Shown here: positions 36,305 to 63,334 of the stretch, in pieces
How positions within the stretch are numbered: position 1 is the stretch's first letter
Layout: each line of letters opens with the position of its first letter
Assembly: GCA_965116885.1 (NCBI GenBank)
Contig: OZ220741.1
Location: 2,496,001-2,560,000 of the forward strand
DNA from: Candidatus Latescibacterota bacterium
GTDB taxonomy: Bacteria; Latescibacterota; UBA2968
Length of the DNA stretch: 64,000 bases
Direction of reading: 5' to 3'
Translations under genes and position numbers: made by a program
Notes under the pieces: generated by a model
Seen by the model: only the letters and a program-made list of their open reading frames with translations
The model's database searches: none
What the model was told of the DNA's origin: nothing

Positions 36305-36381
36305 TGGTGGGCGATACTGGATTCGAACCAGTGACCTCCTGCTTGTAAGGCAGGCGCTCTAACCAGCTGAGCTAACCGCCC
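36305..36381 (-). tRNA. tRNA-Val(TAC)
   Basis: GGGCGGTTAGCTCAGCTGG…CCTTACAAG…GGTTCGAATCC…CGCCCACCA cloverleaf with encoded CCA. Confidence 0.97.
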
Positions 36382-53126: not shown

Positions 53127-54536
53127 TTGTCTAAGGCACAGGTTGAACCCGGGGAGGCAGAACCGCTGTCTCCCCGGGCGGCTCGGCGCGTGTTGATTAG
53201 CCTGATGTTTTCGTCTATGCTGATGCCTATGGTGTCTGGCATGTCGCGGGTTGCATTGCCGGTTATTCGGGATGATTTTGGGATTCCCGCAGATTTGACG
53301 GCGTGGGTTCTGGCAGCTTTTATGCTGCCTTTTGTCGTTTTGATGCCGATTTATGGGCGTTTGAGCGATGGGGTTGACCGGCGGTTGTTGATTCTTTTGG
53401 GGACTGTGATTTTTGGCGTGGGTTCCGCGATGACGTTTATGGCGCCGAATATGCGCTGGTTGATGGCCGGGCGTGCGATTCAGGGGATTGGCGTGGGGGG
53501 GATGACGCCGATGGGTATGGCGCTGCTCGCGTCGATTTTTAGTGAGGGAGAGCGCGGGCGCGTTCTGGGTACGTGGAGTGCGGTGGGTCCGGCGATGAGT
53601 TTTTCGTCGTCGTTTGTCGCGGGTCTTCTCATTGCGCTTTGGGGGTGGCGCGCCGCTTTTGTGCCGGGGCTTTTGCTCAGTGTTGTGACTTTTGTCGCGA
53701 TTTACAGGGGGGTGCCTTCTCAGGTGATTGGTGAGGCGTCTAAATTTTTGCGGCAGTTTGATTGGGGTGGGGTCGGGTTGTTGTCGGGTGGGATTGTGTT
53801 TTTGATGTTTTATTTGTCCAGTCGGTCTGTGACGGGGGTTGCCCCGTTTGAGGATTGGCGGTTGCTTTTGGGCGCGGGGGTGTTTTTTGCGGGTTTCTGG
53901 TGGTGGGAGAGAGGGCGGAGAGATCCTTTTCTTCCGCTCAATTTTTTTGGCAATCGCATGTTTTGCCGGGTGACGTTTTGCGCTTCGATGCGGATGTTTG
54001 TGCAGGGCGGTATTGGGGTGTTGATGCCGCTGTATCTGGTCGATGTTCACCAGATGGGTCCGGCACTGTTGGGCGTGTTTTTGATTATTAGCTCTGCGGC
54101 GATGACGCTGATTGTGCGGTTCGGCGGGCAGATGTCCGATCGTTTTCAGAGTCGGTGGCTGGTGATGATTGGGATGTTTGTGCAGTTGACGGTGATGCTG
54201 GGCTTTGCCCATTTGTCCGATGCGATTTCGACATGGGTTATTGCTGGTCTGCTGGCGTATTATGGGCTTGGGGCAGGGTTGATGCTGGCTGCTTTGCACA
54301 GTACGGTTATGGGGACTGTCGATTCAGATCAGATGGGGGCTGCTGCAGGGCTTTATAGTATGCTGCGGTTTATGGGTATGGCGATCAGTACAGCCCTGAT
54401 CGGGGTGGTGTTGCAGTTTTTCTTCGATGCAAATTTATCTACTCTCGACGCGTATCAGAAGGTATTTATGGTGCTTGCGATATTTCCCGTTCTGGGGATG
54501 GTGGTGGCATTTGGATTGCGGGAAAAGAGGTTGTGA
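53127..54536 (+). CDS. MFS drug:H+ antiporter (DHA2, 14-TM)
   Basis: YGRLSDGVDRR, GRAIQGIG and FDWGG motifs. Confidence 0.9.
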   Translation: MSKAQVEPGEAEPLSPRAARRVLISLMFSSMLMPMVSGMSRVALPVIRDDFGIPADLTAWVLAAFMLPFVVLMPIYGRLSDGVDRRLLILLGTVIFGVGSAMTFMAPNMRWLMAGRAIQGIGVGGMTPMGMALLASIFSEGERGRVLGTWSAVGPAMSFSSSFVAGLLIALWGWRAAFVPGLLLSVVTFVAIYRGVPSQVIGEASKFLRQFDWGGVGLLSGGIVFLMFYLSSRSVTGVAPFEDWRLLLGAGVFFAGFWWWERGRRDPFLPLNFFGNRMFCRVTFCASMRMFVQGGIGVLMPLYLVDVHQMGPALLGVFLIISSAAMTLIVRFGGQMSDRFQSRWLVMIGMFVQLTVMLGFAHLSDAISTWVIAGLLAYYGLGAGLMLAALHSTVMGTVDSDQMGAAAGLYSMLRFMGMAISTALIGVVLQFFFDANLSTLDAYQKVFMVLAIFPVLGMVVAFGLREKRL

Positions 54537-54753
54537 TCACCGCTTGGGTATTTATCAATATTCTCTTAGATCCTACCTATAACCCTTTATTCTTTTTAAA
54601 ATCTGAAGCAGATCGGTCTTTTTTTAGGGAATTATATACAAAAGGGCCAGACAAATATTCCTATTAACGCGATTGACAAATGACCCGAACCTCACACATC
54701 CGTTTATACCATTATTTTGAAAATTCGCTTTCCAACTGATAGTCAAAAAATTT

Positions 54754-54919
54754 GGTAGTGCCTCATTTTGAAAATTCTCGGATGTTTTCTCTCTAAATGG
54801 GTGTCTCTTTTTCAATTTAAATTGGGGCGCGAGGCGCGAGAAACTCAAGAGTATAAAGAAAAGTGTCTCACTTTGAAATCCATCTGAAATCCGCAACGAA
54901 AATTTCAAAGTGAGACACT
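54754..54919 (+). repeat. Left end: five GTGTCTCAnTTTGAAA-like sites (fwd, fwd, rev, fwd, rev)
   Basis: Sites at 54754, 54797, 54829 (partial), 54862 and 54903; the last two form a perfect 18-bp inverted pair. Confidence 0.85.
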
Positions 54920-54938
54920 AAAAAAAGTTGAAAAAATT

Positions 54939-55193
54939 TTAGATGGACGAAATGCTTGAGTTTGGGACGCTATCGCCGAAACGAAATCTATTAAATTGTA
55001 ACTTGTCAAAGCGAGACAGTTGACGGTGCAATCCCAGTATCCCTTTGAAATAACACTCTGGCTTTAAGACGTTGCCATTTTCGTCTTTGCGATACACAAT
55101 AAACACGTCCTCGCGTGGACTACGCCTTGTAGCTGTAATTGTAGCGCAAGAGTAATCATCAGAAAATTCGAGTCGTACATTGGAAAATCCCAT
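54939..55193 (-). CDS. Small hypothetical protein (84 aa, MGFSNV…)
   Basis: ATG at 55193 after AAGGAG; upstream TTCCGT-17-TATAAT promoter (55277-55305). Confidence 0.6.
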   Translation of the reverse strand: MGFSNVRLEFSDDYSCATITATRRSPREDVFIVYRKDENGNVLKPECYFKGILGLHRQLSRFDKLQFNRFRFGDSVPNSSISSI

Positions 55194-55279
55194 GACTGTT
55201 CTCCTTACTTTGTGGTTGGAGCGGAATGGGATAGTGAGTGGGCGGTGGACAGACCGCCCACTCACGCTAAATTTTGATT
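55178..55279 (-). promoter_or_regulatory. Structured 5' leader, copy 1 (13-bp hairpin plus start-codon-sequestering stem)
   Basis: Direct repeat of 56379-56472; stem 55234-55246/55253-55265. Confidence 0.65.
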
Positions 55280-55396
55280 ATATTGGTAAAGATAGACAAA
55301 CGGAAGATTGCCTACAAGTTTTTCTCAATTCTAACAACAAATCCGTCTCGGAGTCATTGTGCCTTTTGGGGCGAGCGATTCAAAGAAAGGAAGTAA

Positions 55397-56167
55397 ATGA
55401 CACAATCTCGCATTATTGTAGAACCATCATGCAAATGGCGTCTGCAAGTAACTGAATTACAGGCATTATTAGAAAATGTAAGAGATGTTTTTGATGATCT
55501 ACTGGTTTGTCCGCCTGAATCTGGTATTATCGTGCGCTACTGTCCATCAGGTCCCAGAGTATTACACAAGCGGGCGGATGATGGATCGTATATTGTACTT
55601 CTTTTTGTATCGACTGATGGTTATGGTCAACCCATTTTTCAATTCGCTCATGAATACGGGCATATCCTCTCTAACTACCGATTTTATGGGCGTCACAAGA
55701 AACAGATTTGGTTTGAAGAATCAATATGTGCATTAGCATCTGCGTTTGCATTGAAAGGATTACAAACTAAATGGAATAACAGCGTGGACGATATGGCAAG
55801 AAATGTAAGGGCGTATCATGTGGGCGATTACTTTAAGTCCGCGTTTGGAGATATTTCTCGCCAATCAAATTTTGCACAATGGTACAGGAATAATAGAGAA
55901 GAACTTGAGAATATCGACTATCATCAGAGCGATAAAAAAGATATAGAACGTATTAGAAAGAAAAACGATATAGTGGCTATTGAGCTTCTTGATATTTTTG
56001 AAAAGTATCCCACTAAGTCGTGGAACGCCGTGCGCTACATGAATCAAGGTCACATAAGTATTGTGGACGAAAGCCTCACCCATTACTTAAACGACTGGCG
56101 TAAACGAACACCTGAACAGTGGCAATTTATAATAGGAAAAATTATGAAGCGATTTGAAATATCTTAA
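55397..56167 (+). CDS. HExxH zinc-metallopeptidase-like protein
   Basis: QFAHEYGHILS…WFEESIC (gluzincin-like HExxH plus downstream E). Confidence 0.7.
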   Translation: MTQSRIIVEPSCKWRLQVTELQALLENVRDVFDDLLVCPPESGIIVRYCPSGPRVLHKRADDGSYIVLLFVSTDGYGQPIFQFAHEYGHILSNYRFYGRHKKQIWFEESICALASAFALKGLQTKWNNSVDDMARNVRAYHVGDYFKSAFGDISRQSNFAQWYRNNREELENIDYHQSDKKDIERIRKKNDIVAIELLDIFEKYPTKSWNAVRYMNQGHISIVDESLTHYLNDWRKRTPEQWQFIIGKIMKRFEIS

Positions 56168-56190
56168 TCTGTTCACATTGGGCTTTCGCT

Positions 56191-56394
56191 CTAATTTCTG
56201 GCGGAATAAAGAAACTCGCGCAATACACTCAGAGGGTGAGTCTTAACCCAAACAGTTTCGGCATTGCCGTCATAGGTCGGAAACGTCTCGCCCTTAACAA
56301 TCATTAAATTCACCCTCCGGTCAGGTTTGTGTTCAGGGTTATAAATGCCAGGCTCCAGACACTTTTCGCCTGTTCTACCATTGGAAAATCCCAT
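56191..56394 (-). CDS. Small YjzC-like protein (67 aa, MGFSNG…)
   Basis: TGEKCLEPGIY…KGETFPT pattern; AGGAG RBS; paralog at 57400-57636. Confidence 0.65.
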   Translation of the reverse strand: MGFSNGRTGEKCLEPGIYNPEHKPDRRVNLMIVKGETFPTYDGNAETVWVKTHPLSVLREFLYSARN

Positions 56395-56472
56395 GACTAT
56401 CTCCTGCTATGGGGTTAATTGGGATAGTGTGTGGGTGGTGTCCCGACCGCCCACACACACTAAATTTTGATT
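56379..56472 (-). promoter_or_regulatory. Structured 5' leader, copy 2
   Basis: Direct repeat of 55178-55279 with a compensatory stem change; stem 56427-56439/56446-56458. Confidence 0.65.
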
Positions 56473-56543
56473 GTTGCTTTCTATAATTTACGATAGTCCG
56501 ATTTTAAAGTCCAGGTTCAAACTGAGACACTTGTACACAAAAA

Positions 56544-56582
56544 AGTCTGGCGAGCCATTTAATTAAAATGACCCGCCAGACT
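56544..56582 (-). terminator. Minus-strand intrinsic terminator; also the left direct repeat of the FRG gene
   Basis: AGTCTGGCGGGTCATTT-taatt-AAATGGCTCGCCAGACT plus T run (17-bp stem with two G-U pairs). Confidence 0.75.
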
Positions 56583-56610
56583 CAGCACAACACAATTTTG
56601 GGTTGACTTT

Positions 56611-57384
56611 ATGGAGAAAATAAAAATGAATAAAGAATTTTTTGATTGTTATTCGGAAGTGATTAAAAGCATTGTTGACTTATCGAAAAAACGATGTGGG
56701 GAAGGTTCTGGTATTGAAGTTCTTTATAGGGGAGAGCCTCAAAAGTATTCTTATATATCTTCTGGTTTGTATCGTTTTCTTTCGGATGTGTATAAGTGGG
56801 ACGAATTAGATTATGTGATGAAAAATCGTATTATAGTCAAGTCTGAAGAACTTATTGCACGGGATATTGTTTCTTTTGAAGGTATTGATGGGCATTATGT
56901 GGATATATGGCGGAATCAGGGGTATATGCCAACTCAATTAGTTAAATATTTTGCTGAAATTCAACATCTTGGCGGTATGACTAATTTGATAGATTTTACA
57001 AAGGATATTAACATAGCGTTGGTTTTTGCATGCAATACTCCTGATAGTTTGTTGGGTGACGAAGAAGGGGATGGACGTATCATAATTTATTATCATGACC
57101 GAAAAAACAGAAATGGAAATGATGTCCTTCATTTTCCCAAAAGTGGTTATGGTCACTTTCAATCGAGTATTTTGATTCGTCCTTTTGAAAATGGGATTCT
57201 TAAAGAAGATCAGGATTTTGTTGATATATTTGATATACCGTTTGAGAAAAAAGAGCCAATTTTGATAGCATTAAAAGAATACTATAATTTAACTGCTCGC
57301 TCTATTTATTCTGATTTGAATGGCTATATTCGGAATCAAAAGGGGTTTCTTAAAGTTGCTCTTTCAAATTTGGCGAATAAATAG
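56611..57384 (+). CDS. FRG domain protein
   Basis: LYRGE, SSGLYR and QHLGGMTNLIDFTKDINIALVFAC motifs; very AT-rich. Confidence 0.85.
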   Translation: MEKIKMNKEFFDCYSEVIKSIVDLSKKRCGEGSGIEVLYRGEPQKYSYISSGLYRFLSDVYKWDELDYVMKNRIIVKSEELIARDIVSFEGIDGHYVDIWRNQGYMPTQLVKYFAEIQHLGGMTNLIDFTKDINIALVFACNTPDSLLGDEEGDGRIIIYYHDRKNRNGNDVLHFPKSGYGHFQSSILIRPFENGILKEDQDFVDIFDIPFEKKEPILIALKEYYNLTARSIYSDLNGYIRNQKGFLKVALSNLANK

Positions 57385-57385
57385 A

Positions 57386-57419
57386 GGCGAACCATCCAAT
57401 TAAAATGACCCACCAGACT
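57386..57419 (+). repeat. Right 34-bp direct repeat of the FRG gene
   Basis: GGCGAACCATCCAATTAAAATGACCCACCAGACT versus 56549-56582 (30/34). Confidence 0.8.
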
Positions 57420-57636
57420 TCACGCCAATAAAACTGAGAACATAATCGCGTAACACGCGCAGATGTCCAGTCTGTTTCCAGTTAGTTTCGTTATTGCAAT
57501 TATAGGTCGGAAATACCTCGCCCTAAAAAATGATTAAATTTACGGTCTGGTCATGCCAGTGCTCAGGATTGTAAACCCCTGATACAAGGCACTTTTCGCC
57601 TTGACCATCAATTGTTTTCAGCGTGTTGCATCTCAT
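57400..57636 (-). pseudogene. Second YjzC-like gene with an in-frame TAG
   Basis: Manual translation GEKCLVSGVYNPEHWHDQTVNLIIF*GEVFPTY…LRVLRDY aligns with 56191-56394. TAG at 57523-57525 replaces AAG (Lys). The start position is uncertain. Confidence 0.75.
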
Positions 57637-57922
57637 TGATGAGGTCAATAAGATGCTCGGTTAATGTGTCAATGCGCCTGAATGCGTCATTTATCCGCAT
57701 GTTCGTTTGGTTTATGCGACTGTAAATTTGATGTATTCGCCTGTCCGTTTCGATTCGTGATTCGCACATTTGGTCTGTGATTAGCCTATTCATATTAAAC
57801 AAATGTTCTTTCATGTGCTCTTGCTCGTCAATGTGCTCTTGAATATGCTCATGAATGAACCTGTGCAGAATCTCTGACAAGCCATTGACCTCTGTTGTTG
57901 AGTGTATTTCGTGTATAGTCAT
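57608..57922 (-). CDS. Hypothetical coiled-coil protein
   Basis: Heptad-like RIETDRRIHQIYSRINQTNMRIND; GGGAGA RBS; upstream TTGCAT-17-TATCTT promoter. Confidence 0.6.
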   Translation of the reverse strand: MTIHEIHSTTEVNGLSEILHRFIHEHIQEHIDEQEHMKEHLFNMNRLITDQMCESRIETDRRIHQIYSRINQTNMRINDAFRRIDTLTEHLIDLINEMQHAENN

Positions 57923-58050
57923 TGTTCCTTCTCCCTTGCAATGAATATATAAGAATGTAGTTGTGCTGTTTGCAGGAGAAGATAGCGAAAACAGTATTGC
58001 GATGCAAGGGAAAAATTTGCGTAAGTTATTAAATTAAAATACTTTACAGC

Positions 58051-58201
58051 AGGTTTCTCACTTTGAAATTACAATCTAAAACTTTCAAAATGAGACACAA
58101 AAAGAAAAGAGTGCCTCGCATTTTACAATCATTTTGAAAGCGAGACACCCATGCAAATCTACGGCAAAAATGCTGATGAAATTTCAAACTGAGACTTTAC
58201 C
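58051..58201 (-). repeat. Right end: five sites mirroring the left end
   Basis: Sites at 58051, 58083, 58111 (partial), 58132 and 58182. Confidence 0.85.
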
Positions 58202-58208
58202 AAAAATT

Positions 58209-58949
58209 TTAACGAATCCGTATGATTGTTGCTCTAAAATCACAGGAACCCATTATACTCAACCTGGTTTGTAATAATGATAAATTTTCATCAAGTATCA
58301 CACCATTAGCTCCACGTCTTTTGGCATCCTCGCGCACAACTTCTAAAACTTCAAGAGGGGTAGAACGACGAATTACTTTAACAAAAATTTGTCCAATTTC
58401 TTCGTATTTCACGTTACTTGCACGATGTTCAAAAATTTTTACTTGCCCATCCCATTTCTCATACGTTTTTCCAGTCTCTAAAAACTCAATCTGAATATTA
58501 TTAGAAATAACACGTTTAGGCACAGTCTTAAAAACTCTCTTTGGAGATTCACTACCACCATCTCTAATATCTTTTAACCTATCTCTTATCCCATCAATAT
58601 CCCGCTTCATCTCCTCAATACTTACACGTACAGACCCAACAACCTGACCCAAATCATCCAGCCTTTTATTTTTTTTAATATTATTCCCTTTTAATTCAGA
58701 ATAATCTTCTTTGTCAATACCTGAATTTTTATTTTCTGAAACACCCTCATGAATCTCACGAACCTCACGCATTTCTAACCTGTAAACCTGATCGTACAAA
58801 GAATCAATTTTAACAGATAAAACATGCAACGAATCTTGTCCCTCACTATATAAATCATCCGTCCTAACAGATAATTGCTGTAAATTCAAATACAAAATCA
58901 CAGTAATTACAAAAAGTACAAACGTACATAACCATAACCCTTTGGACAT
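58209..58949 (-). CDS. Membrane-anchored coiled-coil hypothetical protein (passenger of the outer cassette)
   Basis: N-terminal TM, coiled coil and C-terminal AKRRGANGVIL (YbjQ-like) segment; GGAG RBS. Confidence 0.7.
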   Translation of the reverse strand: MSKGLWLCTFVLFVITVILYLNLQQLSVRTDDLYSEGQDSLHVLSVKIDSLYDQVYRLEMREVREIHEGVSENKNSGIDKEDYSELKGNNIKKNKRLDDLGQVVGSVRVSIEEMKRDIDGIRDRLKDIRDGGSESPKRVFKTVPKRVISNNIQIEFLETGKTYEKWDGQVKIFEHRASNVKYEEIGQIFVKVIRRSTPLEVLEVVREDAKRRGANGVILDENLSLLQTRLSIMGSCDFRATIIRIR

Positions 58950-59134
58950 ATAGATACTCCAGTCTAAAAAAATGAATATCTCATAAATACTGCATAGTTA
59001 CCATATTTAGTCCCGTCAAGAACACTCAAACTTTCCCTCGGCCCGTTTGTATATAATTCCCTTTTTTAAATGCAAGTTGTGAATGGGTACCATTTATATC
59101 GGTCAGAACCAAATTGCTGGACCTGATATTCATT

Positions 59135-59863
59135 TTACCACTCCCCTGATGTGTACTTAGTTTCCAATTCATTGAGTCCCATGAATTTCACACGTTTACG
59201 AATTTCGTGGAAAGTGTCCATTGAGATTTTGTCGGTAAAAATGTTTATCCGATGTTTTGGGGCAACAATGCTGAATTGTATATAAAAATCTTGCAGTTCG
59301 TTGAATTTAATCAACGAATTCTGCATATCCGTGGACATTTCAACTTCGAACATCGCTTCTGGCATCTTTCGTCGATTGAACCAGATAACATCCACGGTTT
59401 TGGCTTTACGCATAAAGTCTGGATAGCCAAAATTGGGTAGCTGCGTCGAATCGCATACATCGCCAAGTTTTTGATTACCGCCGAAGACTTGATTTTTGTC
59501 TTGAGCAGGGACATAGGTCTTGTAATCACGAGCCTTGCCGATTTCCACCAGCAAGCCCTGATAATGCGTGTGATTGCGTTTCTCCGCGTCACGCGGGATG
59601 TCGCCGCGTTGTGGGATTTTGTACTCTTTTTCAAATTCCTCGGCGCGTTCAGTAAGGCAATATAACCCCGGTTTGAGACGGTAAAAGTAGTCAGATTTTT
59701 CTTGCACAATGCGCCGAATGGTCGCCTCCGGTGTCTTGGTCTTCCAATTCACCCCAGCCCCGTTTGGCGGAAGAATATCGGAATTCAACTGTGATAATGT
59801 GGCGATACCACCCAGCCTTTTGAGTGCTTCTAAAACCTGCATCCACTGTGGAATACTTTTCAT
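59135..59863 (-). CDS. Winged-HTH (HARE-HTH-like) + PD-(D/E)XK restriction-endonuclease-like protein
   Basis: WKTKTPEATIRRIVQ…PGLY N-terminal domain; HTHYQGLLVEIG and VDVIWF…FEVEMST nuclease-like motif. Confidence 0.7.
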   Translation of the reverse strand: MKSIPQWMQVLEALKRLGGIATLSQLNSDILPPNGAGVNWKTKTPEATIRRIVQEKSDYFYRLKPGLYCLTERAEEFEKEYKIPQRGDIPRDAEKRNHTHYQGLLVEIGKARDYKTYVPAQDKNQVFGGNQKLGDVCDSTQLPNFGYPDFMRKAKTVDVIWFNRRKMPEAMFEVEMSTDMQNSLIKFNELQDFYIQFSIVAPKHRINIFTDKISMDTFHEIRKRVKFMGLNELETKYTSGEW

Positions 59864-60017
59864 CTATTTCCCCGTTTGGGCTTAGTCCTTTGGATTTGGA
59901 CTTGACCCGTTTTAGCGGACAACTTATCTCTTTCATGGATTCCACTAGACATAGGAGAGATCTCCTTTGCTGTAACAATGACTTCCATTTCTGAGCTCTC
60001 TAATTGATCTAACCTGT

Positions 60018-60599
60018 CTAATAGTTTTTTGTCCATAATTCCTCTTCTTCGGTCTCTGGCCTAATTTGTTTCTTCCTCAATTCTTCAAACTCATAATTAT
60101 CCAGTTCGATTTTGAGTTTAGTAAGATCTATCATTCGGACCAGCAAACAGAAAACATACCCTATTGCCACTGATATTAAAATAATAGACACAAAGAGCAT
60201 CCAGTATAGCTTAGGCTGTGTGGCGTTAGCGGATGTGTCATTTATTGGCGGATTTATTATAATCGCACAGAAAACAGCCAACATAGAACAGGCGACCACA
60301 AAGATCCAGCGCCAAATCAGCTCTATTTGCACATCTCCCAATTTATGAAAGAGTTCTTCTGCTCTATCGGAGTATTTGATGCCCTGTATCAGTGTTCGAG
60401 TTTGCGATATCCAACCGATACTCCATCCAACCAGAATTCCGGCAATAGCCGAGAAATTCCCAAGTGTCCGGACTATTTCAGTTGCTGTTTGAGGCGTTGG
60501 AAATAAATTAAATAAATAGACACACATAGACCCCAGGGAACCCAGAGCTCCAAAAAACATTGCCTGAATGAGGAGTTTTTTTGCCATATTCATGCCCAT
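60018..60599 (-). CDS. Hypothetical 4-TM membrane protein
   Basis: Four hydrophobic segments; co-oriented with and downstream of 60664-61620. Confidence 0.7.
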   Translation of the reverse strand: MGMNMAKKLLIQAMFFGALGSLGSMCVYLFNLFPTPQTATEIVRTLGNFSAIAGILVGWSIGWISQTRTLIQGIKYSDRAEELFHKLGDVQIELIWRWIFVVACSMLAVFCAIIINPPINDTSANATQPKLYWMLFVSIILISVAIGYVFCLLVRMIDLTKLKIELDNYEFEELRKKQIRPETEEEELWTKNY

Positions 60600-60663
60600 T
60601 TCTCAGTTTATTGGATACATGGATATACTCTCTAATTGCTTATTCAAAAAGTATTTATTTCCA

Positions 60664-61620
60664 TCATATATGTTCTTGTAGAGCCAGAGAATTATGCCAT
60701 TCGATCATTTTACGAAAAATATCTTGGTCATCAGGCATGTCATTTATGTGGACCACATCTTTTCGGGTGCTTAGCCGTAATTCATCGTATTTTAGCGTGC
60801 CTGAATCGGTTTCTACTTCAATGTGAATGTCTGTGTCATCGCCAACATGGCGAAAAGTGTTTGCCAGCGCGTCAATTTGGTCAGAAAGCCTTCTTGTCCC
60901 TCTCTTTTTTTTCAAAGCGAGAGATAGAGTGACTTCAATATCTTGGTCTTGGGTAACTCCGCGTGTGTATGTCTCTGTGATGTGTTCAGAGGATAGACCT
61001 GTCATTGCTTTTATCGCATCCCATCCACGTCCTATAGGCGGTAATGACCTTCTGGTTTTCAAGTCAGTGCTCAGAGGGGCTGAAATGTTGATTCGTCGTG
61101 CCCCTCTGATTTTGTCTCGGGATTTTCTCGATATTGTTCGCCGAATTATCATTTGCCGTTCTTTGAAAAATCCTGTCGCGCGTTTACAAAACATACTATT
61201 GAGATATTTTTCCAAGTGTCGCACTTGAAGGTGCTGATCTTGGGCGGCAATCAAGTAATTACGATAGCAGACAAAATAAAGTTTTCCCTTAAGAAATTGT
61301 TGATCAGTTCCATCCTGAGCAGGTGGGGCTTTGAGCACACCAGCCTGAAGTTCTTCACTATCAAGATCTTCTTTAATTATTTCTCCAATTCCATTCTTGT
61401 CATACTGGAAGAAGTTGGCACAAAAGAAACCTCTATAGATACTATTATAGTTGATGAGGTTGAGGCGGTTCGCTGCTATGTATTCATCAACTTCACGCAG
61501 CCGATCCCTAACTTTTGTATCTCTAAAAACATATATCAATAGATCTTGTAGTGTATAATTGTAGGGTTCATTAAACTGAGCCTGCCAATAAGTGAAACTT
61601 TTCTTTTTGAAATTAGCCAT
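60664..61620 (-). CDS. Hypothetical soluble protein (about 318 aa)
   Basis: Long AT-rich ORF; no motif recognised with confidence. Confidence 0.7.
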   Translation of the reverse strand: MANFKKKSFTYWQAQFNEPYNYTLQDLLIYVFRDTKVRDRLREVDEYIAANRLNLINYNSIYRGFFCANFFQYDKNGIGEIIKEDLDSEELQAGVLKAPPAQDGTDQQFLKGKLYFVCYRNYLIAAQDQHLQVRHLEKYLNSMFCKRATGFFKERQMIIRRTISRKSRDKIRGARRINISAPLSTDLKTRRSLPPIGRGWDAIKAMTGLSSEHITETYTRGVTQDQDIEVTLSLALKKKRGTRRLSDQIDALANTFRHVGDDTDIHIEVETDSGTLKYDELRLSTRKDVVHINDMPDDQDIFRKMIEWHNSLALQEHI

Positions 61621-61779
61621 AACTGTCAATGTCTTCCAAGCTTTTGTAAATACTGCGCTAGTGGGTATTTATATCTCTAAGATTTTATCTTCTTGAGAAG
61701 ATTCGATAGACTCCATTTAGACGCAAAATAAGAAAACGGTTAGAACTGAACCAGCTAAAAGCTGTCTGTGGCGTATATT

Positions 61780-61986
61780 TCAATTTTTTTTATTTGCTTT
61801 TCTCTGTTCCATTGCAGCTTTGCTTATCTCAGCGACATTTCTCTCGGACCAGAGGTTTTGCTGCCATTTCGTATAATCGAATGGCTCTCGCAAGATCAAG
61901 CTGATAAATTTCTCAGCTTCAACATCTCCCAAAACATCTACCAGTGCGCGTAGTCCATTTACTCGTATTTCAGTATCGGTTCTCAT
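61780..61986 (-). CDS. Putative antitoxin paired with the PIN protein
   Basis: GLRALVDVLGDVEAEKFI…FDYTKWQ; ATGA overlap with the PIN gene. Confidence 0.75.
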   Translation of the reverse strand: MRTDTEIRVNGLRALVDVLGDVEAEKFISLILREPFDYTKWQQNLWSERNVAEISKAAMEQRKANKKN

Positions 61987-62417
61987 AGATTCATCTCCCG
62001 AACAAAAGAGGTTGGATCTAAAACACTAATCCCCTGTATGTTTTGGCTACGCTTGAGGATTCTGTCATCCGTTGTCAAAAAATGACCACATCCTCCAGCT
62101 ATGGCACACGACAAGTGTAAAGCGTCCTTCGGCTTTAGCCCAAGTTTAACCAGATCGTCCGCTTTTTGCAAGATTACAGTCGTTTCCTCAAGATCGATAG
62201 CCGCGTATCGCTTCCAGTTAGTGATTACCGCGCGTCGCTCCTCAAAAGGATTCGCTTCGTTCTCAGAATCGATAATATATGACCAGACAAGTTCCAGCGT
62301 ACCCTCCCGAATATTCTCCTGAATACACAGCTTCGCTTCCGCTTCAAGGCGGACTCTTGTTTGCCCTTGATCATCAAATGGGCGATTGAAACAACAGTTA
62401 TCGAGATAGACTCTCAT
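61983..62417 (-). CDS. PIN domain (VapC-like) toxin
   Basis: VYLDNCCFNRPFDD, DALHLSCA and FLTTDD motifs. Confidence 0.88.
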   Translation of the reverse strand: MRVYLDNCCFNRPFDDQGQTRVRLEAEAKLCIQENIREGTLELVWSYIIDSENEANPFEERRAVITNWKRYAAIDLEETTVILQKADDLVKLGLKPKDALHLSCAIAGGCGHFLTTDDRILKRSQNIQGISVLDPTSFVREMNL

Positions 62418-62473
62418 ATCCGATCTCACATTTTTTGAGGACTTCTGCGGGGGAAAATCAACGGCACTTAACT

Positions 62474-63334
62474 TCAATCATCACCCAATAGCTTCTGTGC
62501 GTTTTGATATGTTATTTTGTCGAATGCTTCTTTCGGCAGGTTCAGGCGTTGTAGATAGTCCATCAGGCGCGTGTCGAAGTAATCCCTTCCAAATAACAGG
62601 CTATCTTGAAAATCGATCAGGAATTGCCTGCCAAATGCTTCGTCTCTGCTGATTGCGGTCAGTCCCGATCCCGCTGAGAGGTCGGCGTATAGATTGTCGT
62701 ATTTTTTGAGCATCTGGGGGACTTTGCCGCCGGGTTCAATTGGACCTGTGGGATAGGCTTCTTTGTCGAATTTGCCGTCGCCGGAAATGTGCGCCCAGAA
62801 TCCCGGGGCGTGGCCGATGAAGTTGGTTTCGGGACATGCGATAATTGCCCGTTCAAATGCTTCGATGCTGCCGCCGTACCACCAGTTTGGTCGCGGGTAA
62901 TCCCCGCGTCCGTGGTCGATGGGATAGTCGAGATGGATTGTGATTGGCAGGCCCATTTCTCCACAGGCATGATATAGTCTGAGGGCATCCGGGTCGTCAA
63001 ATACCACCCGCACCTTTAGTTCGCTGGCAACCCGAATCCCGTGAATTTCTACGGCTGCTTTCAGGCGGTCAATTGCGTCGGGCCGCTTTGGGTGTGGCAT
63101 GTATCCCAGTACAAATCGGTCGGGGGCTGTGCGCCCTACCTGTATCACGTCTTCGAGGGGGATGCACACGCCTGTTGGGGGCAATACTTTGTGATAGCTG
63201 GGACTGTATTCATCTTCTGGCGCTTCCCAGGAAAAGAGCCACATCTGGTCGATGTTTTGCTCGTCCATGTTTTTCAATATTTTTTCGGCGTTGAATCCGT
63301 GCCAGTTTGGGTGATTGTGCGCGTCGATTAACAT
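62474..63334 (-). CDS. Amidohydrolase_2 family protein
   Basis: IDAHNH, FIGHA, YADLSAGSG and LFGRD motifs. Confidence 0.88.
   Translation of the reverse strand: MLIDAHNHPNWHGFNAEKILKNMDEQNIDQMWLFSWEAPEDEYSPSYHKVLPPTGVCIPLEDVIQVGRTAPDRFVLGYMPHPKRPDAIDRLKAAVEIHGIRVASELKVRVVFDDPDALRLYHACGEMGLPITIHLDYPIDHGRGDYPRPNWWYGGSIEAFERAIIACPETNFIGHAPGFWAHISGDGKFDKEAYPTGPIEPGGKVPQMLKKYDNLYADLSAGSGLTAISRDEAFGRQFLIDFQDSLLFGRDYFDTRLMDYLQRLNLPKEAFDKITYQNAQKLLGDD

Follow-up and report, generated by a model that had tools for sequence, protein, structure and literature searches.

Two neighbouring small-protein genes, termed ORF A and ORF B, are each preceded by a copy of the same leader of about 100 bases. They lie 1.2 kb apart in a low-GC island (38-42% GC) of the window, i.e., the whole 64-kb stretch of DNA that was analysed. 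Both leaders are on the minus strand (copy 1 from 55279 to 55178, copy 2 from 56472 to 56379) and share four blocks, while the two proteins are unrelated beyond their common start. We regard the leader as a well-documented two-copy candidate and propose, with a probability of about 40%, that it is a cis-acting 5' leader common to the two co-located genes and co-regulating them. The repeat would be the 5' leader of both ORF A and ORF B, the genes being transcribed separately, and it would have two cis effects on the mRNA. Near the 5' end, a highly stable hairpin of 13 bp may mark or stabilise the transcript or be bound by a factor, and in a weaker helix the AUCCCA(U) just past the hairpin would pair with the start-codon (A)UGGGAU. 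Since the latter helix would enclose the SD, translation of both genes would hinge on the opening of the same helix. The first four codons (AUG GGA UUU UCC) would then be constrained as RNA, and MGFS in the unrelated proteins would be largely a by-product. The features are as follows.

55267..55279, minus strand: leader copy 1, block 1 AATCAAAATTTAG, identical to copy 2 at 13/13 positions
55234..55265, minus strand: copy 1 GC-rich hairpin of 13 bp in the MFE fold, GTGAGTGGGCGGT, loop CTGTCC, ACCGCCCACTCAC
55226..55233, minus strand: copy 1 TATCCCA (7/7 identical to copy 2) plus T; AUCCCAU forms the 5' side of the predicted start-codon helix with AUGGGAU (MFE and alifold)
55198..55225, minus strand: copy 1 variable segment, SD GGAG at 55201-55204; CUCC at 55219-55222 pairs with the SD in the MFE fold
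55178..55197, minus strand: copy 1 start block AGTCATGGGATTTTCCAATG, ATG at 55193-55191, 20/20 identical to copy 2
54939..55193, minus strand: ORF A, 84 aa, MGFSNVRLEFS..., five relatives with 58-75% identity
56460..56472, minus strand: leader copy 2, block 1 AATCAAAATTTAG
56427..56458, minus strand: copy 2 hairpin, GTGTGTGGGCGGT, loop CGGGAC, ACCACCCACACAC, with 12/13 pairs and one C.A mismatch
56420..56426, minus strand: copy 2 TATCCCA; AUCCCA is predicted to pair with UGGGAU at the start codon (MFE and alifold)
56399..56419, minus strand: copy 2 variable segment, SD GGAG at 56401-56404
56379..56398, minus strand: copy 2 start block AGTCATGGGATTTTCCAATG, ATG at 56394-56392, 20/20 identical to copy 1
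56191..56394, minus strand: ORF B, 67 aa, MGFSNGRTGEKC..., six relatives, dN/dS 0.31 against its paralogue B'
57400..57609, minus strand: B', a third B-type body without leader and without MGFSN, with an in-frame TAG at 57523-57525

The direct repeat consists of a longer part of 53 nt with 87% identity (55227-55279 / 56420-56472) and a shorter part of 20 nt with 100% identity (55178-55197 / 56379-56398). An earlier first-pass annotation had described diverged direct repeats upstream of the two ORFs, each with a GGAG ribosome binding site and an identical first 16 coding nucleotides. These observations hold, and the identity is slightly longer than had been noted: 20 nt, made up of AGTC and the 16 coding nt and taking in four synonymous sites. 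GGAG lies 7 nt ahead of ATG in copy 1 and 6 nt ahead in copy 2, and both start sites are well-formed. In the hairpin, the 5' arm is identical at 12/13 positions, the loop at 3/6 and the 3' arm at 11/13. The SD segment between TATCCCA and the start block (29 nt vs 21 nt) is diverged and essentially unalignable, the blocks being conserved far above the spacer between them. A 19-mer at the start, with up to 3 mismatches allowed, occurs twice in comparison with 0.06 expected (0/100 shuffles reach two occurrences), and the 27-nt upstream pattern occurs twice with 0.00 expected. Pattern search and covariance model agree on two leader copies in the 64 kb, each preceding an ORF. No third copy was detected in the window by the covariance model with filters off, and a six-frame scan of the window revealed no MGFS-type ORF starts other than those of ORF A and ORF B. 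Synonymous divergence between B and B' amounts to a dS of 0.90, and sites of such age would have diverged in the absence of constraint, not stayed identical.

ORF A and ORF B are real conserved genes belonging to rare protein families, with 13 members found across the two families in several genomes. The relatives are 48-104 aa in length, and both ORF products are hydrophilic. The N-terminus is M-[GE]-[FY]-[SL] or M-x-T-G-F-S in 13/13 members and exactly MGFS in 8/13. One relative (P0003) starts with MEFS, which would produce a mismatch in the start-codon helix unless compensated, and in two others (P0007 and P0008) the called start lies two codons ahead of GFSN. Insertions and deletions occur directly after MGFS in both families (FY added in A; three residues lost or one gained in B), and both vary most at residues 5-8. 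Between ORF A and ORF B only residues 1-7 can be aligned (hhalign probability 8.5%), and BLASTP of one against the other found nothing. We rejected distant homology of the two proteins, as hhalign stops at residue 7, BLASTP is empty and past codon 7 the DNA scores like shuffles. A frameshifted origin was rejected too, the best off-frame score (31) being below the shuffle maximum (32). The earlier claims that the proteins are unrelated after the shared start, and that a duplicated structured leader has been joined to two unrelated ORF bodies, are thereby borne out.

Both MFE folds contain the 5' hairpin and the AUCCCA:UGGGAU helix across the SD and start codon, and the helix is also present in the alifold consensus, in agreement with the pairing that had been proposed from inspection. 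The hairpin with its compensatory A-T to T-A change was likewise confirmed: copy 1 forms 13 bp, one pair differs at both positions (A-U vs U-A); copy 2 forms 12/13 pairs, the remaining one being a C.A mismatch. The arms, 13 bp long, have 69% GC. The copy 1 leader folds with z = -5.03 (0/200 shuffles as good) and the copy 2 leader with z = -2.63 (2/200 shuffles as good). Two leader sequences give no statistical covariation, and the start-codon helix, being invariant in both copies, yields no information for or against itself. TATCCCA and the start block, which flank the SD, are mutually complementary over 6-7 nt. Among 20000 random 7-mers from the island, 263 have a Watson-Crick complement of at least 6 nt in the start block, and 2420/20000 match it when G.U pairs are allowed. 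Opening the region from -14 to +6 is predicted to cost 12.5 kcal/mol in A and 9.0 in B; 44 long ORFs taken from the window average 7.5. The masking of copy 1 is above controls (attained in 9/300 shufflings of the intervening segment), whereas that of copy 2 is ordinary (reached by 63/300 shuffles and by 10/44 background genes). A strong form of the translational lock suggested by the first-pass annotation is therefore not upheld, the opening energy being unusual in copy 1 only. The ordinary masking of copy 2, together with the frequency of 7-mer matches with G.U pairs, counts against a start-masking leader. Warming from 15 to 45 C lowers the opening energy of A from 18.5 to 10.4 kcal/mol and that of B from 14.2 to 7.4 kcal/mol, as it would for any helix.

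The position of the hairpin in the transcript depends on the promoter. TTCCGT-17-TATAAT had been reported directly upstream of copy 1 and is present at 55305-55277. The start predicted from its TATAAT (55277-55282), the last 3 nt of which are the first 3 nt of block 1, would lie 3-6 nt ahead of the stem. However, its -35 agrees with TTGACA at 2/6 positions, and it is absent from the promoter-scan listing, which gives ATGACT-18-TAGAAT, with TG before it, about 50 nt farther upstream; a start from this alternative site would place the hairpin about 55 nt within the transcript. At the position of TATAAT, copy 2 has AACAAT. Given the poor -35, the alternative upstream site and the AACAAT of copy 2, the 5'-terminal hairpin that we infer may not hold; of the original claim, the sequence stands and the placing of the hairpin at the 5' end stays conditional. 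The ompA 5' UTR carries a 5'-terminal stabiliser hairpin of a bacterial mRNA, and the leader resembles it in having a very stable stem-loop near the presumed 5' end, before a single-stranded start region; it differs in that the hairpin position here depends on the predicted start.

The ROSE-type RNA thermometers are 5' leaders that mask the SD and AUG upstream of small heat-shock genes, at several genes per genome. They share with the present leader a length of about 100 nt, more than one hairpin, a 3' helix over the SD and start codon and an occurrence at several genes. Unlike them, this leader has no Rfam match, its downstream genes are not heat-shock genes (family scans of ORF A and ORF B gave no match to heat-shock, cold-shock or virulence families), its copy 2 masking helix is not clearly above controls, and its conservation extends into codons 2-5 of unrelated proteins. 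Among type I toxins, mRNAs locked through folding of the 5' UTR have been described for aapA1/IsoA1 (PMC5416894) and dinQ (PMC5066626). The likeness lies in multi-copy small ORFs, a start site enclosed by leader structure and a possible antisense partner, and the difference in the products, which are hydrophilic conserved proteins of 67-84 aa here and membrane peptides of 30-50 aa there. The type I toxin-like character proposed earlier is not borne out by the hydrophilicity and length of A and B and of their relatives, nor by the ORF A model, which is without a membrane helix.

Four other explanations were weighed against a shared cis-acting leader. The promoter-proximal hairpin, start site and first four codons might be a portable module, moved or copied onto small-ORF bodies by recombination or gene conversion, so that the identity between A and B reflects exchange as much as selection; this is compatible with a cis-acting leader, and we hold it to be doubtful. 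It agrees with an identical module on unrelated bodies, with length variation exactly after MGFS in both families and with rearrangement scars nearby, among them a 34-nt repeat that flanks the FRG-domain gene. It agrees also with B', which retains the B body; its homology to B begins at GGCGAAAAGTG, about 8 nt past the end of the start block, and upstream of that point the end of another ORF replaces the leader module. The B' boundary and the indels after MGFS thus lend some circumstantial support to the suggestion of the first-pass annotation that ORF bodies may be swapped after codon 5. Yet 13/13 members of both families already have an MGFS-type start, which implies that the fusions are old and stable. 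Apart from the decaying B', no body is seen both with and without the module; two bodies are known, a third copy is absent from the window, and no recombinase or target-site features adjoin the leader. In its fullest form, in which leader and first four codons are a self-contained, exchangeable control module grafted by recombination in variable islands, the idea seems to us improbable; such a module would be the bacterial counterpart of a 5' exon shared by small proteins, with its junction just after codon 4-7. The common start may alternatively be read at the protein level, MGFSNxR being a peptide signal (for recognition, processing or targeting) common to two co-acting proteins and the upstream likeness a promoter and 5' UTR inherited through duplication, which we consider unlikely. 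Residue 7 is Arg in both proteins via different codons (CGA and AGA), and this, with residues 3-10 forming a beta strand in the ORF A model, fits an N-terminal constraint on the protein and speaks against a constraint on RNA only. GFSN is retained in P0007 and P0008 in spite of their upstream called starts. An A-family and a B-family member, each on a 2714 bp contig from one source, suggest that the families move jointly. The gene for a gluzincin-like HExxH protein sits between ORF A and ORF B; a complex prediction of this protein with ORF A scored 0.01 and 0.00, the mark being 0.32, a result that speaks neither for nor against binding. A peptide signal leaves unexplained the 20/20 nt identity with its four synonymous sites and the 4 nt before ATG, as well as the conserved hairpin, block 1 and TATCCCA; moreover, residues 5-8 are where both families vary most, and no known signal of such form was matched.

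The remaining two explanations concern the other strand and the DNA itself. A cis-antisense RNA spanning the start codon and SD of A or B might end with the hairpin read on the plus strand, followed by CUAAAUUUUGAUU; SymR/symE and type I toxin-antitoxin systems have such an arrangement. In the scan, each hairpin counts as a plus-strand terminator-like element, the conserved block 1 would be accounted for as the complement of a U-rich tail, and a plus-strand promoter-like TTGCCA-17-CACAAT is found at 55072-55100, within ORF A. We nevertheless judge this quite unlikely. The stems themselves qualify as terminator stems, but the tails after them (GCTAAATTTT and ACTAAATTTT) have one U in their first six bases (GCUAAA / ACUAAA), the T run beginning 6 nt past the stem, which makes for a poor intrinsic terminator; the scan rule is lenient. 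The promoter-like site is present in 1/2 copies, none being listed within ORF B; a cis-antisense RNA requires no sequence conservation between loci; and the products are not small hydrophobic toxins. A plus-strand coding sequence across the hairpin was rejected: the copies read WDSEWAVDRPPTHAKF vs WDSVWVVSRPPTHTKF, and each difference alters the residue (translations compared by eye). Finally, the 32-bp perfect palindrome might be the operator of a dimeric repressor at or just past the transcription start, controlling A, B and perhaps divergent genes. The A-T to T-A change leaves the dyad symmetry intact, as changes in both half-sites would, and the palindrome is located within divergent intergenic regions, A/HExxH-gene and B/FRG-gene. 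Against an operator, which we think very improbable, stand arms whose GC content within such a low-GC island looks selected for helix stability, the broken symmetry at one position of copy 2, the conserved start block, which it leaves unexplained, and the neighbouring genes, among which no DNA-binding protein was recognised.

Searches beyond the two copies were carried out at the DNA and protein levels. In Rfam 15 (4227 models), run on the whole window at the gathering threshold, the sole match was a tRNA at 36308-36381; in the region 54900-56700, an E limit of 10 let in three weak matches (E 1.1-6.9), none of them on the leaders. Genome contigs were scanned with a degenerate 18-mer at the start codon and 10-kb flanks, yielding 83 loci that did not include the source genome. 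The hairpin or leader was found upstream in 0/83, and the loci are chance matches within unrelated genes. The covariance model run on these loci (1.30 Mb) gave 3 matches at E <= 1 (27.5, 25.1 and 18.4 bits), each on the searched 18-mer. No match was found for the leader DNA or ORF A in plasmids or for the ORF B protein in plasmids and phages; ORF A matched two records of one Rhodococcus phage with E = 0.05, which we took as noise. The Atlas neighbours of Ffh, the signal recognition particle protein, come from several phyla. The leader does not have the character of a dispersed mobile repeat, a REP/MITE or an integron attC, there being two copies in 64 kb and the scanned island ORFs lacking integrase and transposase domains.

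If it does function as RNA, the leader would be an undescribed cis-regulatory motif; the literature on YjzC and on shared leaders that was searched does not describe it, although, the search being incomplete, the motif may have been published elsewhere. A shared cis-acting leader would link two rare, uncharacterised small-protein families that apparently co-travel in a defence-type island, and it would provide a clean case of RNA-level constraint fixing how unrelated proteins begin. With one leader and two reporters there would be a simple handle for studying the ORF A and ORF B proteins. Should the module be exchanged between ORF bodies, it would offer a route for new small genes to gain ready-made expression signals.

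As to the proteins themselves, no match under E 0.07 emerged when PDB sequences were searched with profiles. ORF B aligns to the Pfam family YjzC (PF14168), with residues 7-51 on profile positions 8-55 of 55; at E = 0.007 and 17.1 bits, this weak YjzC-like alignment falls short of the 25 bits set as curated cut-off. The AF2 model of ORF B (pLDDT 42) is unusable. ORF A has no match in Pfam, NCBIfam or PADLOC. Its AF2 model (pLDDT 74) is beta-rich, with four main beta strands, the first being residues 3-10, followed by a helix. Foldseek comparison of this model with the PDB gave none at E <= 0.001 (best E 0.078); a resemblance to the four-strands-plus-helix arrangement of Pur-alpha (TM 0.44, E 0.17) may serve as a lead only.

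Two small minus-strand genes of the window, ORF A and ORF B, are each headed by one copy of a leader repeat, and the layout read from the sequence is as follows.

55279 to 55178, minus strand: leader copy 1, whole unit
55279-55267, minus strand: copy 1 block 1, the conserved 5' segment AATCAAAATTTAG, 13/13 identical to copy 2
55265-55234, minus strand: copy 1 hairpin of 13 bp, GTGAGTGGGCGGT / CTGTCC / ACCGCCCACTCAC, one base after block 1
55233-55227, minus strand: copy 1 TATCCCA, 7/7 identical to copy 2
Between TATCCCA and the start block, minus strand: copy 1 middle segment, 29 nt, containing AAGGAG
55197-55178, minus strand: copy 1 start block AGTCATGGGATTTTCCAATG, spanning the ATG at 55193, 20/20 identical to copy 2
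56472 to 56379, minus strand: leader copy 2, same block order, 21-nt middle segment, ATG at 56394
54939..55193, minus strand: ORF A, 84 aa, no family match in the scans
56191..56394, minus strand: ORF B, 67 aa, sub-threshold YjzC-like match (17.1 bits, cut-off 25)

The two hairpins agree at 12 of 13 positions in the 5' arm, 3 of 6 in the loop and 11 of 13 in the 3' arm, and the middle segments (29 vs 21 nt) do not align. With up to 3 mismatches the start 19-mer occurs twice against 0.06 expected (0/100 shuffles reach 2), and the 27-nt pattern upstream likewise has two occurrences, with 0.00 expected. A covariance model of the two copies, as proposed in the first-pass annotation, was built and run on the whole window with filters off; it recovered the two copies only (135.5 and 120.5 bits), also matching both hairpins on the opposite strand, and one further match (E 9.5) was taken as noise. 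Because of these counts and the covariance-model result, the repeat reported by that annotation is not a product of chance.

Both ORFs carry the GGAG ribosome-binding site described earlier, 6-7 nt before the ATG. Relatives number five for ORF A (58-75% identity) and six for ORF B; the B family is rare, with only 5 representatives at E 0.001 or below in a set of 1.84 billion proteins. Since both have relatives, and ORF B compared with B' (a third B-type body, also in the window) gives a dN/dS of 0.31 (dS 0.90, over 51 codons), ORF A and ORF B are real genes. Their proteins are unrelated after residue 7: hhalign aligns residues 1-7 alone, BLASTP gave no match, the pair shows no relation in another frame, and their DNA is not similar past codon 7.

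In the predicted fold of both leaders, the 5' hairpin is followed by a second domain that AUCCCA(U):(A)UGGGAU pairing closes, with the Shine-Dalgarno (SD) sequence inside, and the alifold consensus retains both helices; the pairing over the ribosome-binding site, noted earlier, is predicted in both copies. The compensatory change noted earlier is one hairpin pair altered on either side (A-U to U-A); copy 2 also has one C.A mismatch. The whole-leader z-score is -5.03 for copy 1 (0/200 shuffles as good) and -2.63 for copy 2 (2/200). The conserved blocks on either side of the SD are mutually complementary; random 7-mers from the surrounding low-GC island have a Watson-Crick complement of at least 6 nt in the start block in 263 of 20000 cases, rising to 2420 of 20000 when G.U pairs are allowed. 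Opening the -14..+6 region at 37 C is predicted to cost 12.5 kcal/mol for ORF A and 9.0 for ORF B, compared with a mean of 7.5 (sd 3.4) over 44 long ORFs in the window (3 reach 12.5 and 10 reach 9.0), a rough control because the background DNA is mostly of higher GC and start codons were picked by a simple rule. When the hairpin-to-SD segment alone was shuffled, the ORF A value was reached in 9/300 cases and the ORF B value in 63/300. On these figures the predicted hairpin is solid, and the translational lock suggested in the first-pass annotation is plausible for ORF A and unremarkable for ORF B.

The promoter claimed for copy 1, TTCCGT-17-TATAAT, is present at 55305-55277; its -35 is poor, and the promoter scan lists instead ATGACT-18-TAGAAT with a preceding TG, about 50 nt upstream. 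Copy 2 has AACAAT in place of TATAAT, and a TGGACT-17-TAAATT candidate, read by eye, lies ~20 nt farther upstream. Because of the poor -35, the rival upstream sites and AACAAT in copy 2, we infer only provisionally that the hairpin would stand at the transcript's 5' end.

Each of the 13 proteins in the two families opens with the same short N-terminal motif, exactly MGFS in 8 of them, and the residues just past it are the most variable and the site of indels in both; conservation beyond the window was judged on protein sequences (P numbers denote relatives).

A family, MGFSNVR: window ORF A and P0010
A family, MGFSFYDVK: P0006
A family, MGYSFYNVK: P0009
A family, MITGFSNVR: P0007
A family, MTTGFSNVR: P0008
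B family, MGFSNGR: window ORF B and P0002
B family, MEFSNGR: P0003
B family, MGFSIERT: P0004
B family, MGFLKGM: P0011
B family, MGFSKGM: P0012
B family, MGFSVGEKC: P0013

Since the motif opens all 13, the joining of a leader-type start to the body is old in both families rather than a recent local accident. P0008 and P0002 each lie on a single 2714-bp contig from the same source, which suggests, and does not prove, that the A/B pair also occurs together elsewhere. The leader matches no Rfam family, and an exact-pattern scan of genome contigs gave 83 loci, all chance matches and none a leader homologue. Four of these (L033, L046, L056 and L076) fall in a near-identical ~100-nt repeat carried by four contigs of a single Candidatus Micrarchaeota metagenome-assembled genome; the repeat is multi-copy there and unrelated to the leader.

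We tentatively favor, at a probability of about 0.4, a cis-acting 5' leader shared by the two genes, in which a stable hairpin near the mRNA 5' end and a weaker helix tying the start codon to the conserved upstream hexamer would jointly place these co-located small-protein genes under common post-transcriptional control, and constraint on the RNA would keep codons 1-4 frozen while codons 5-8 vary most. Known elements set beside it were ROSE thermometers, ompA-type 5' hairpins, hok/sok or SymR, and CsrA sites. It is credible as a new candidate motif of a known general kind, drawn from two copies. The earlier observation is confirmed, and its interpretation is supported in part. An exchangeable module, compatible with the shared leader, is unlikely as the explanation; the covariance model found no further dispersed copies in the window and no recombinase was found beside the leader, and the modular aspect is intriguing but unproven. 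Equally unlikely is an N-terminal tag acting at the protein level. A type I toxin, also proposed earlier, was rejected because the products are hydrophilic and conserved; the predicted ORF A model (pLDDT 74) has beta strands then a helix, with residues 3-10 as the first strand. A cis-antisense RNA using the leader hairpin as its terminator is improbable: a plus-strand scan rates both hairpins terminator-like, which keeps it alive, but the T run begins 6 nt past the stem, making the terminator weak. A DNA operator is more improbable still.

The genes lie in a low-GC island of about 54.5-62 kb (54500-62500; 38-42% GC against 50-57% in surrounding DNA), which also holds several ORFs without family and has defence-type content. 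From high to low coordinates the order is 104-aa ORF(-), B'(-), FRG gene(+), leader and B(-), HExxH gene(+), leader and A(-).

57608..57922, minus strand: 104-aa ORF, its stop overlapped by B'
57609->57400, minus strand: B', in-frame TAG at 57523-57525, no leader, no MGFSN
56611..57384, plus strand: FRG-domain gene, matching PADLOC candidate defence family PDC-S15
55397-56167, plus strand: HExxH protein, 256 aa, HEYGH and Glu 18 residues on (gluzincin-like motif, by eye)
59135..59863: type II restriction-enzyme-like protein
61983..62477: PIN-domain protein

The HExxH protein has no Pfam or NCBIfam match, and the Atlas cluster closest to it bears the automatic name 'putative M64 family metallopeptidase' (score 0.98). 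Homology of B' to B begins only about 8 nt past the conserved start block; ahead of that point lies the end of the 104-aa ORF. A direct repeat of 34 nt (88% identical, 56549-56582 and 57386-57419) flanks the FRG gene, and on the minus strand both copies form a terminator-like hairpin with a T run after it, suggesting an earlier tandem arrangement of B' and B, with the FRG gene inserted into the terminator that separated them.

All 8 occurrences of a 17-nt motif, GTGTCTCACTTTGAAAT (up to 3 mismatches allowed, 0.21 expected), fall inside the low-GC island, at these sites.

54758-54918: GTGTCTCACTTTGAAAT sites
56514-56530: GTGTCTCACTTTGAAAT site
58053-58197: GTGTCTCACTTTGAAAT sites

Inverted pairs form long hairpins then T runs (e.g. 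54863-54918, right past ORF A), and a solo copy precedes leader copy 2 by ~40 nt; the motif could be a palindromic terminator family or a common protein-binding site. A 23-nt inverted repeat (22/23; 54626-54648 and 59040-59062) encloses 4.4 kb with both leader genes, the HExxH and FRG genes, B', the 104-aa ORF and a 246-aa ORF, its left arm lying at the GC drop after a major-facilitator (MFS) transporter gene.
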